Assembly (NCBI GenBank): GCA_041661385.1
Contig: JBAZUP010000002.1
Span: 14,670 to 78,669 of the forward strand
DNA from: Patescibacteria group bacterium
GTDB lineage: Bacteria > Patescibacteriota > Patescibacteriia > Magasanikbacterales > GWA2-37-8
DNA length: 64,000 bases
Direction: 5' to 3'
Positions 46,953 through 49,832 of this stretch are shown here, in pieces. A program made the position numbers and the translations under genes. How positions within the stretch are numbered: position 1 is the first letter of the stretch; the number at the start of each line of letters is the position of its first letter. The notes below the pieces were generated by a model, which was not told where the DNA came from, ran no database searches, and saw only the letters and a list, made by a program, of their open reading frames with translations.

Positions 46953-49832
46953 ATGAATAAATACGACCCAAACAAAATTGAAGCCAAGTGGCAAAAGCAC
47001 TGGGAGAAAAACAAGACTTTTTGCGTTAAAGAAGATTCAAAGAAGAAAAAGTTTTATTCACTCATTGAATTTCCATACCCATCGGGTGAAGGTTTGCATG
47101 TCGGCCACCCCCGTCCCTTTACTGCCATGGACGTGATTTCGCGCAAACGACGCATGGATGGTTTTAATGTTTTGTATCCAATTGGCTTTGACGCGTTTGG
47201 ACTCCCAACCGAGAATCACGCTATCAAAACCAAACAGCAGCCCGCTGTAGTCACGAAAAAAAATATTGCCAACTTTACCCGCCAGCTCAAACTGCTCGGC
47301 TATAGTTTCGATTGGGACCGGGTGGTTGATACCACCGACCCGAAATATTTCAAATGGACCCAGTGGCTGTTTTTACAATTTTATAAACACGGACTAGCTT
47401 ACAAAAAAAATCAGCCTATTAACTGGTGCCCGAAAGATAAAATCGGCCTCGCAAATGAAGAAGTAGTAAATGGTTGCTGTGAACGTTGCGGTACCGCCGT
47501 CGAACAGCGCAACAAAGAACAGTGGATGCTCGCGATTACCAAATACGCCGAAAAATTACTTCAAGGTCTTAAAGAAGTTGACTACATTACTCCGGCCCGT
47601 GTCAGCCAAGAAAATTGGATTGGAAAAAGCGAAGGCGCGTTAGTTAATTTTGCTTTAGAGAATTCCGACGAAAAACTACAGGTCTTCACCACCCGGCCGG
47701 ATACTTTATTTGGTGCCACCTTTATGGCTGTCTCTGCTGAGCTTGCCAAGAGCTGGCTTGATAAGGGCTGGAAAGTAAGTAAGGAAATTGAAAAATATCT
47801 TGAAAAAACTTTATCCGAACAGAAAGTCCTCGACCGGGTAGAAAAAGAAAAGACCGGTATTGCGACCGATAAGTTTGCAATCAACCCCGTGAATGGAAAA
47901 AAGATTCCGGTTTGGATTACGAATTATGTTTTGGGTGGAGTTGGTACCGGCGCTATTATGGCCGTGCCCGCGCACGATGAAAGAGATTTTGAATTTGCCA
48001 AAAAGTTTGGATTGCCGATTACGCAGGTTGTAGCGCCATATTTTTACGATAGTAATAACCCGCCGCGCTCGGACAAAAAAACCGTCAAACGAATTAATAT
48101 TCAAGCCGTTGTAAAGCATTGGTCAGAAGACAAAGTAATTCAGATCCAATGGAAGGAGCAGCCCTGGAAAACTTTTGTCATCGGCGGAGCTGAAGCCGGT
48201 GAGAAGTTGGAAGACGCGGTAAAGCGGGAAGTGCTGGAAGAAACCGGATATAAAAATATCAAATCAATTAAACGAGTCGGAATGGAGCTTCGTTCGGAAT
48301 GGTTCGCCGCCCACAAAGATGAAAATCGTTATGCCAACATGAATGTTTTTGAGGTTGAACTTGCAGACGGAGAAAAAGACGAATTGTCCGCCGAAGAAAG
48401 TGAGAAGCACGTTGTCGCCTGGGTTCCTTACAAAGATATTCCGTCTTTTGCTGGAGTTGGGGAGCTGGCCTATATCTGGAAAGAATTAAATAATAAATCC
48501 GGTTGTTTTTGTGAAGACGGTGTTGCAATAAATTCCGGTGAATTTTCCGAATTGAAAACTGCCGAAACTAAAGAAAAAATGATTGCTTGGCTAGAAGAAA
48601 AGAAGATCGGCAAGCGCCAAGTAAATTATAAACTTCGCGATTGGGTATTTTCCCGTCAGCGCTATTGGGGTGAACCGATTCCGCTCGTTTATTGTGAAGC
48701 CTGCGCGAAAAATAAAAGGTTTGAAAGCAAGGGCGAAGAAATGAATCCAGGCTGGATTCCAGTTGAAGAAAAATCTCTGCCGCTCGAACTTCCAAAAGTT
48801 GATAAATATGAACCGACTGACACCGGCGAGTCGCCGCTCGCGCCAATGACAGATTGGGTAAATACTAAATGCCCGCGCTGTGGTGGAAAGGCGAGGCGTG
48901 AAACCGACACTATGCCAAACTGGGCTGGATCAAGTTGGTATTTCCTGCGTTACACCGACCCGCACAATGATAAAGCTTTCGCCGGTAAAGACGCGCTAAA
49001 ATATTGGATGAGTGTAGATTGGTACAACGGCGGCATGGAACATACTGTACTGCATCTTTTATATTCTCGTTTTTGGAATGAATTTTTATTTGATCTTGGA
49101 CTCGTGCCAACCAGTGAACCATATAAAAAGCGCACCAGCCATGGCATGATTCTCGGCCCCGATGGTGAAAAGATGAGTAAGAGCCGGGGTAATGTAATAA
49201 ACCCCGACGAAATGATTGAAAAGTTTGGTACGGATTCTTTTCGCACTTATATAATGTTCATGGGTCCGTTTGATCAGGCGGTAATGTGGGATACCAATGG
49301 GCTAGTCGGCGTCCGCCGTTTCCTCGAGCGAGTTTGGTTTTTACAAGAAAAAATTTCCGATAGTCCAGCGAGCGCAAACGCAATTTCAGTTTTGCATAGA
49401 ACCATTAAAAAAGTTGGCGAAGATATAGATACGATGCGATATAATACTGCAGTTGCCGCTCTCATGCAGCTCACCAACGATTTAATGAAAGAAGAAACTA
49501 TTGATAAAAATACTTACAAAATATTAATTCAATTGCTGTCGCCGTTTGCCCCGCACCTTTCCGAGGAACTCTGGGCAGAATATGGCGAAAAGGATTTGAC
49601 GTTTAGCGCTTGGCCGAAGTTTGATCCGGCACTAGCCAAATCCGCTACTTTTACCCTTGCCGTCCAAATCAATGGTAAGGTGCGCGATACGATCGAAGTC
49701 GACTCAGAGATAAGCGAAGCAGATGTAAAAGAATTGGTTTTGAAAAGTGAAAAGGTGCAGAAATGGCTGGAAGGCAAAGAGCCAAAGAAAATAATTTACA
49801 TTAAAGGCAAGCTTGCGAGTGTAGTAATATAG
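46953..49832 (+). CDS. leuS: Leucine--tRNA ligase with an internal Nudix-hydrolase domain insertion
   Basis: HVGHPRP (HIGH), KMSKS, CP1 editing domain ([26 protein letters not shown]), RDW..SRQRYWG.PIP. In addition a ~140-aa insertion at about aa 361-516 carries a perfect Nudix box [23 protein letters not shown]. Confidence 0.9.
   Translation: [959 protein letters not shown]

Follow-up and report, generated by a model that had tools for sequence, protein, structure and literature searches.

A Nudix hydrolase domain nested in the editing domain of leucyl-tRNA synthetases from Patescibacteria

What does a complete Nudix domain do inside a leucyl-tRNA synthetase (LeuRS), and how is it maintained there? 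Aminoacyl-tRNA synthetases (aaRSs) are among the most conserved enzymes, and their bacterial architecture is regarded as essentially fixed. The question is raised by the leuS gene in a 64,000-nucleotide stretch of DNA (the window) from contig JBAZUP010000002.1 (assembly GCA_041661385.1, positions 14,670 to 78,669 of the forward strand), which belongs to a Patescibacteria group bacterium of Magasanikbacterales GWA2-37-8. This gene (46953..49832, + strand) is an uninterrupted open reading frame with a single terminal stop and encodes a bacterial-type LeuRS of 959 amino acids, named P0154 here. An earlier note, made from the sequence alone, had described a complete in-frame Nudix domain within an otherwise intact LeuRS, as opposed to a neighbouring gene, and this description stands: the reading frame is continuous, and both the LeuRS model TIGR00396 and the Nudix model PF00293 match above their cut-offs. 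That a Nudix domain is nested in LeuRS can be regarded as near-certain.

Position, sequence and fold of the insert

The Nudix cassette, including its own entry and exit linkers, covers aa 361-518 of P0154 (48033..48506, + strand). Alignment to the LeuRS of Thermus thermophilus (Tt; structure 1h3n) indicates that these 158 residues occupy the place of a 14-residue loop, Tt 363-376. The coordinates first proposed (48033-48500), like the count of about 165 residues where about 25 are usual between two anchor motifs, are essentially right, while the placement of the insert between CP1 and the catalytic core has to be revised. The editing domain of T. thermophilus LeuRS comprises residues 224-417 (PMC4030129, Fig. 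1), which places the insert within CP1 instead of behind it. PF13603, the Pfam model of the editing domain, agrees: its match in P0154 (aa 220-365, 191.6 bits) breaks off at model position 145 of 185, and in the insert-free relative P0165 it runs unbroken from 1 to 184. Isolated CP1 domains in crystal structures extend 40-55 residues beyond the insertion point. By these alignments the insert sits within the CP1 editing domain, in a surface loop about three quarters of the way through it.

The search with PF00293 that the earlier note had proposed gives a match at aa 402-496 above the gathering score of 21.1: the complete protein scores 38.7 bits, and the segment on its own 44.2 bits (E 2.4e-11). 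The Nudix box, read directly at aa 411-433 (48183..48251, + strand), agrees throughout with G-x5-E-x7-R-E-U-x-E-E-x-G-U, with Y at the final hydrophobic position, and contains the presumed metal-binding and catalytic residues E417, R425, E426, E429 and E430. G411, R425, E426, E429, E430 and G432 are invariant among 45 aligned sequences. Of 235 modules, 23 have lost at least one residue of the box. The subfamily also possesses a signature of its own, composed of K455, N458, W490 and the conserved entry and exit linkers. Judged by its sequence, the insert is a self-contained, complete Nudix hydrolase domain with every catalytic residue of the box, and it is apparently active. An intein was considered and rejected, as a Pfam scan returned no Hint or intein family and the ends of the insert, VV/APYF and NNKSGC/F, have no H-N junction.

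The AlphaFold2 (AF2) model of the module (aa 361-522, built with a 45-sequence alignment) is a compact domain with a pLDDT of 92.8 and a pTM of 0.86. It displays the alpha/beta/alpha sandwich of the Nudix fold, with the box on a loop-helix-loop, and the MutT-like strand segments named in the earlier note coincide with predicted strands and the helix. In the model of the full-length protein the secondary structure of the module is the same, and both linkers are ordered (block means 79-94). The insert is thus predicted to fold like a free Nudix enzyme. Foldseek returned 459 matches to the module at E<=1e-3, and the closest solved structures are the MutT/nudix protein of Enterococcus faecalis (2AZW) and NudI (3OGA). 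The fold neighbours, only 16-24% identical to the module, belong to many substrate classes: NudI, RppH, NudC, NUDT15, Ap4A/Ap6A hydrolases, ADP-sugar hydrolases and DIPP. The curated Nudix equivalog models all stay far below their cut-offs, the best scores being 29.1 against 158 for NudC, 23.7 against 116-118 for RppH, 21.7 against 95 for NudI, 20.7 against 103 for NudB and 17.4 against 248 for ADPRase. Because the neighbours are so diverse and the equivalog scores so low, a substrate is not assignable by similarity.

The enzyme around the insert is a regular bacterial LeuRS. TIGR00396, the NCBIfam equivalog model for bacterial LeuRS, scores 948.9 bits against a cut-off of 548.4, with its match split around the insert, and P0154 aligns to Tt LeuRS in three blocks: 1-360 with Tt 1-362, 519-735 with Tt 377-579, and 740-959 with Tt 637-876. 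The HIGH-type signature of the aminoacylation site reads HVGH (aa 49-52, 47097..47108; this and the following features are all on the + strand) and is unchanged across 46 aligned relatives. The first part of CP1 (aa 220-360, 47610..48032) contains the T-rich motif TTRPDT (aa 246-251, 47688..47705) and the motif with the conserved Asp (aa 331-345, 47943..47987). The tail of CP1 (aa 519-556, 48507..48620) follows the cassette and aligns to Tt 377 onward; the catalytic core resumes at aa 557, with a further conserved LeuRS motif at aa 562. KMSKS (aa 740-744) is preceded by PDGE (aa 736-739) in the position of the leucine-specific domain (LSD), the two together covering 49158..49184, and the anticodon-binding domain (PF08264, 70.6 bits) lies at aa 810-920 (49380..49712). 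The LSD itself is absent, as query residue 735 corresponds to Tt 579 and residue 740 to Tt 637. This domain is naturally missing in some bacteria, such as Bacillus subtilis and Mycoplasma mobile, and is dispensable for both LeuRS activities (PMC3643597); the PDGE of P0154 (49158-49169) resembles the GKDG linker of the M. mobile enzyme described in the same study. Its loss seems general in the LeuRS clade of P0154, where insert-free relatives are 769-866 aa long. The full-length AF2 model (pLDDT 87.3, pTM 0.76) has no disordered segment and superposes on the LeuRSs of Escherichia coli, Neisseria gonorrhoeae and T. thermophilus (Foldseek E about 1e-77, TM 0.76-0.83 per target). To judge from these motifs, the synthetic site and the CP1 editing site are both intact.

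Distribution, replacement and free copies of the cassette

The insert is neither peculiar to one contig nor rare. An identical protein is encoded on two contigs, one from NCBI and one from JGI, and NCBI lists it as 'class I tRNA ligase family protein [Patescibacteria group bacterium]'. When a profile built from the module and its flanks was run against 1.84 billion cluster representatives, it matched 163 clusters at E<=1e-30 and 388 at E<=1e-10, and at least 540 stretches encode a relative when one genome per GTDB species is considered. From these matches in species-representative genomes, 80 loci were fetched: the LeuRS flanks are covered in all 80, the full module is found at the same site in a LeuRS-length frame in 78, and a strict Nudix box in 75. 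The survey of related LeuRSs that the earlier note suggested therefore returns the same insertion in 78 of these 80 loci, and the assembly chimera that the note named as a possible refutation is argued against by these 78 independent genomes as well as by the two sources of P0154. About 50 of the 80 fetched records are explicitly named Patescibacteria or candidate phyla radiation (CPR), and the rest bear generic or doubtful labels. Several loci (L007, L008, L009, L010, L016, L017, L020, L036, L061 and others) are titled 'uncultured Gammaproteobacteria', 'Bdellovibrionales', 'archaeon', 'Pacearchaeota' or 'Thermodesulfobacteriota'; at least some of the titles are probably mistaken, since L016 and L020 share the Fpg-leuS-ComEC synteny of the window. 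The architecture is widespread in Patescibacteria and unremarked in public databases. The earlier note knew of no described LeuRS-Nudix architecture, and full-text searches of the literature found no description of one.

The cassette has the same GC and third-position GC (GC3) as its host gene, and its borders show only short chance repeats and no mobile-element signature. A phage or viral origin was considered and rejected: tblastn against 50,697 phage records gave no match, and IMG/VR none that was confirmed. A search for defence-system membership gave only a weak PADLOC match (PDC-S07, E 1.6e-3).

The 120 closest LeuRS relatives were mapped onto the insert-free P0165, with an extra segment defined as one of at least 50 aa. 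At least one such segment is carried by 101 of them, at recurrent sites. The site of the Nudix loop in P0154 (site A) holds a Nudix domain in 70 relatives, a Nudix together with another domain in 2 and a non-Nudix segment in 21, and is empty in 27; the non-Nudix cargo includes HAD_2 (P0230) and a methyltransferase (P0260). Site B, at about residues 437-451 of P0165, is occupied by an alpha/beta serine hydrolase (PF06821/PF00561) in 42 of the 120, and two further cargo sites are more rarely filled. A Ham1/ITPase domain precedes the anticodon-binding domain in P0027. Two to three Nudix domains occur in one LeuRS in P0005, P0006 and P0008, and since the copies within one LeuRS are only 19-45% identical, they are different types and not recent duplicates. 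In Patescibacteria, the Nudix loop and three other sites of LeuRS thus hold interchangeable enzyme domains or nothing. Cargo-bearing relatives include P0027, P0047, P0010, P0160, P0230 and P0260. HAD_2 is seen either in the Nudix loop or at a third site of patescibacterial LeuRSs, an S-adenosylmethionine (SAM) methyltransferase is also seen, and the enzymes reach 1358 aa.

Among the 70 relatives with a Nudix at site A, mean identity is 68% in the core and 30% in the module, with a Spearman correlation between the two of about 0. P0195 and P0267, for example, share about 97% identity on both sides of the cassette, dropping abruptly to about 25% over aa 364-526. Outside the module, 25 pairs are at least 80% identical, and among them module identity is bimodal, 24-32% in 10 pairs and 79-100% in 12; cores in the former are 81-94% identical and the immediate flanks 75-100%. 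As they occur in several independent lineages, these replacements are hard to attribute to a single assembly chimera. Single-linkage clustering at 50% yields 27 module types among the relatives, and on the core tree these alternate with sites that are empty or carry HAD. The type found in P0154 also occurs in P0155, P0156, P0167, P0249 and P0269 and recurs in distant cores, while the nearest cores to P0154 possess other types or none. On this comparison of sequences, the cassette has been replaced repeatedly between otherwise near-identical LeuRSs. Module types that persist show ratios of non-synonymous to synonymous substitution (dN/dS) of 0.04-0.17, at or below those of the flanking core, and are under strong purifying selection. 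A younger age or recent transfer of the module, proposed from its lower dS, was dropped, as whole-gene profiles show leuS to be mosaic overall. Mosaicism outside the Nudix site is seen in L013 and L015, whose leuS genes share 95-99% nucleotide identity over most of their length and 60-80% in a patch at aa 201-324, the first half of the editing domain, and also between L016 and L020 and between L011 and L027.

The module is also encountered outside LeuRS, in a restricted set of forms. The best 149 cluster representatives comprise 124 modules embedded in LeuRS and 25 that are free Nudix proteins of 160-190 aa, members of a family of about 275 aa or di-Nudix proteins; no fusion to another protein family occurs among the 149. 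In similarity space the free forms are scattered between the inserts, and they keep the linkers of the insert. Six free genes were sampled, and five of them lie upstream of leuS, in at least three synteny contexts. P0001 is 580 bp upstream of an insert-free leuS, and P0107 is 2 nt upstream of another. P0125 lies directly upstream of the leuS start, in a locus (L090) that also contains a free PF06821 hydrolase, and P0144, part of a TatD / Nudix / HD-nucleotidase / Nudix cluster, is separated by 2.4 kb from the leuS downstream of it. P0058 (JGI metagenome 3300071358) ends 2 nt before a 951-aa leuS with a Nudix insert of its own; a free and an inserted copy thus stand side by side, as would be expected were cassettes passed between them, in either direction, by gene conversion. 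The sixth gene, P0131, has no leuS nearby and starts 4 nt after Fpg (L088 4342-5839 / L089 110-1607).

Members of the family of about 275 aa (P0003, L003 5790-6623; P0002, L004 1445-2266) align to LeuRS aa 230-544 and are stand-alone, catalytically degenerate CP1 domains with an intact Nudix: TTRPDT has become IEKPEL, and HDERD has become HIQKD or HNMED. About ten related clusters are known, including P0011, P0020, P0026, P0035, P0044, P0067 and P0092, on contigs of 21-27% GC. Their neighbours encode a viperin-kinase-like kinase (PADLOC pVip-kinase, E 2e-30), radical SAM enzymes, a PRTase-like protein, CYTH and a second Nudix, and the locus resembles a cluster for nucleotide modification into which part of a LeuRS has been recruited. 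The module subfamily as sampled is limited to LeuRS, to LeuRS-derived remnants and to small free genes mostly located directly upstream of leuS.

Possible functions of the cassette

The explanation favoured here, and only tentatively, is that the module is an autonomous pyrophosphatase of nucleotide house-cleaning or salvage tethered to LeuRS. Its substrate would be a diffusible nucleotide or a derivative of one, cleaved by an Mg2+/Mn2+-dependent pyrophosphohydrolase activity, and it would sanitise or salvage the pool in the manner of MutT, NudI or Ham1 in organisms dependent on scavenged nucleotides. The module would be attached to an essential, insertion-tolerant LeuRS, expressed together with it, and would have no part in the chemistry of leucylation and editing. 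Homologous recombination across the strongly conserved flanks and the common linkers would probably be the means of cassette exchange, and free copies adjoining leuS its likely source or sink. Sanitation or salvage is favoured because the cargo and neighbours found with the module have roles in house-cleaning or nucleotide catabolism (Ham1, HAD, YfbR-like HD, TatD, other Nudix, Fpg). The several divergent Nudix copies in one LeuRS suggest several substrates, and the module is dispensable and swapped, which argues against an intimate coupling with LeuRS chemistry.

Several observations weigh against this explanation. No substrate class stands out for the module, whether by sequence or by fold comparison. 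Generic house-cleaning leaves unexplained why the module is exclusive to LeuRS (124 of 149 embedded, none in other proteins) and why free copies stand beside leuS in at least three synteny contexts; the exclusivity would be better explained by Ap(n)A hydrolysis or by a role directed at tRNA or inhibitors, and the fast turnover of cassettes could mean conflict-driven diversification. The Fpg/MutM gene of the window (46019-46918), which ends 35 nt upstream of the LeuRS-Nudix gene, also counts for little: only 5 of 88 loci have Fpg close to leuS, and the pairing is also seen in an insert-free relative (L085). This adjacency is therefore ascribed mostly to lineage synteny and kept as a weak hint, given that the free P0131 follows Fpg.

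The first rival, which we consider unlikely though still to be reckoned with, holds that the module is an Ap(n)A hydrolase that clears Ap4A or Ap3A (or Np4N), the side product of Leu-AMP and ATP, at the place where it is made. One criterion for a Nudix-type Ap4A hydrolase is a Tyr that follows the Nudix box at a distance of about 16-18 residues. Ap4A hydrolases are not the nearest fold neighbours of the module, 2azw and NudI ranking higher, and LeuRS is not known to be among the strong Ap4A producers. Removal of one by-product would need neither up to three divergent Nudix copies (19-45% identical) nor the alternative HAD, Ham1 and methyltransferase cargo, and many close relatives live without the module. 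The context slightly favours house-cleaning over Ap4A hydrolysis.

A second proposal seems improbable to us: leuS would contain a hypervariable accessory locus into which cassettes from free copies are swapped under conflict-type selection, and the Nudix and other cargo, instead of performing generic house-cleaning, would have a repair or immunity function on damaged or poisoned LeuRS substrates, such as a modified tRNA-Leu 3' end presented to the editing domain or nucleotide-type inhibitors aimed at LeuRS, diversifying in an arms race. The hypervariability of the site, the sharp replacement of cassettes in near-identical enzymes, the 27 module types among 120 relatives and the several divergent copies per LeuRS are consistent with it, as is the nesting of the module in the domain that binds the tRNA 3' end. 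A curated family of isoleucyl-tRNA synthetase (IleRS) with a GNAT domain exists (NF040702), and the mini-CP1 proteins with Nudix are clustered with a viperin-kinase-like kinase and radical SAM enzymes. LeuRS is, moreover, the target of a natural Trojan-horse nucleotide antibiotic whose producers carry an immunity LeuRS (PMC5059758). On the other side, there is no direct evidence for such a substrate, the only defence-model match is the weak one to PDC-S07 (E 1.6e-3), and no relatives are found on phages or viral contigs. The Ham1 cargo suggests sanitation of small molecules, and recombination mosaics are general in leuS, so that turnover may need no arms race.

A non-catalytic role, in which the Nudix fold would serve as a ligand sensor or a structural spacer modulating LeuRS in the manner of NrtR, is distinctly improbable. 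Nudix-fold regulators are indeed among the fold matches (3gz5/3gz8 NrtR, 5bs6 AraR), and box residues have been lost in the 23 modules mentioned above; set against this, the box of P0154 is perfect, R/K-E-x2-EE is kept in 112 of the 118 modules at site A, and those residues are invariant in 45 relatives, as expected for catalysis. Pre-transfer editing, a role put forward in the earlier note, in which the Nudix would cleave non-cognate aminoacyl-adenylates released from the synthetic site, is more doubtful still. The module does sit on an aaRS that makes such adenylates, but aminoacyl-AMP is an acyl-phosphate and does not contain the nucleoside-diphosphate-X bond, the post-transfer editing site is intact, and the module is dispensable, with 27 of 120 close relatives empty at the site. 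Swaps between modules about 25% identical, and replacement by HAD or methyltransferase domains, are also not what a tightly coupled proofreading step would lead one to expect. An assembly chimera or a neutral, decaying passenger is scarcely credible: metagenome-assembled genomes can be chimeric and the insertion is missing from some close relatives, but the same protein is found on two contigs from two sources and the architecture in 78 of 80 independent genomes, GC and GC3 match the host gene, dN/dS is 0.04-0.17 and the AF2 model is confident. Taken together, these rivals and the favoured reading fall well short of the whole probability, the remainder being assigned to some other Nudix activity.

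The pairing of a MutM with a MutT-like protein is suggestive, both in the window, where Fpg stands by the P0154 gene, and in the free P0131, which follows Fpg. A 142-aa unannotated gene between Fpg and the insert-free leuS of L085 was considered as a split-off Nudix and rejected (BLASTP E 1.5). A HAD-family hydrolase of 204 aa (45400-46014; PF00702, 33.5 bits; DxDGT) ends 4 nt before Fpg. It was rejected as kin of the HADs inserted in LeuRS, with no BLAST match at E<=1, and none of the 87 other loci has an equivalent gene. Elsewhere the window encodes ordinary housekeeping proteins (at 11682-14120, 21198-23318, 42381-44411 and elsewhere), including a ClpB-like ATPase, phosphoglucomutase, DnaE, the anaerobic ribonucleotide reductase NrdD, RNase Y, IF-2 and GroEL. 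Its phenylalanyl-tRNA synthetase (PheRS) beta subunit is of normal size and domain content, with no extra domain. The RNA genes identified in the window are two tRNAs (Met and Glu), with no other Rfam family.

Significance and comparison with known systems

These LeuRSs present an essential synthetase as a carrier of autonomous enzymes, which a small-genome, host-dependent lineage keeps, multiplies, swaps and discards. If the role is nucleotide sanitation, reduced genomes would bundle the control of metabolite damage with core translation; if the targets are Ap4A, tRNA ends or LeuRS inhibitors, a new functional extension of a synthetase would be at hand. The modules constitute a testable enzyme family of about 160 sequence clusters and a clear case of domain-level cassette exchange within an essential gene, and the occupied sites provide a natural map of insertion-tolerant positions in LeuRS that is useful for protein engineering.

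The components belong to known kinds: a bacterial LeuRS, a Nudix hydrolase, and synthetases with extra enzyme domains, of which NF040702 is an example. New are the nesting of a Nudix in the editing domain, a Nudix subfamily exclusive to LeuRS, LeuRS loops as hot spots for alternative enzyme cargo, and the repeated replacement of cassettes in an essential gene. Compared with the LeuRSs of T. thermophilus (1H3N/2BYT), E. coli (4AQ7/4ARC) and N. gonorrhoeae (6Q89), P0154 has the same domain order, HIGH and KMSKS motifs, zinc motifs, CP1 with its T-rich motif and conserved Asp, and C-terminal domains (phmmer E 4e-202). It differs in possessing a whole Nudix for a 14-residue loop and PDGE for the LSD, the latter change being known from M. 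mobile and B. subtilis (PMC3643597). From free Nudix hydrolases (2AZW, 3OGA, RppH, NudC, NUDT15, Ap4A hydrolases) the module is set apart by its low identity of 16-24%, its own signature and its nesting in, or linkage to, LeuRS.

The NCBIfam family NF040702, IleRS with an N-acetyltransferase domain, is similar in that an unrelated enzyme domain is fused into a class Ia synthetase; in LeuRS, by contrast, the domain is a Nudix, lies inside the editing domain instead of being appended, alternates with other cargos and is exchanged as a cassette. Appended domains are also carried by eukaryotic aaRSs. The CP1 insertions of archaeal and eukaryal LeuRS and the insertions of RNA polymerase subunits are vertically inherited, non-enzymatic elaborations in surface loops. 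They share with the present case the tolerance of essential-enzyme surface loops for modules, whereas the patescibacterial site holds autonomous enzymes, of 27 types among 120 relatives, that have been replaced repeatedly. Polymorphic toxin loci such as Rhs and CdiA, with their variable C-terminal domains, orphan modules and displacement of cassettes, resemble leuS in their conserved bounds, in adjacent free copies with shared junction sequence (here P0001, P0058, P0107 and P0125) and in leaving the host protein undisturbed. The case of LeuRS differs from them in its host, an essential housekeeping enzyme, and in the internal position of the module, and no toxin/immunity logic is evident.

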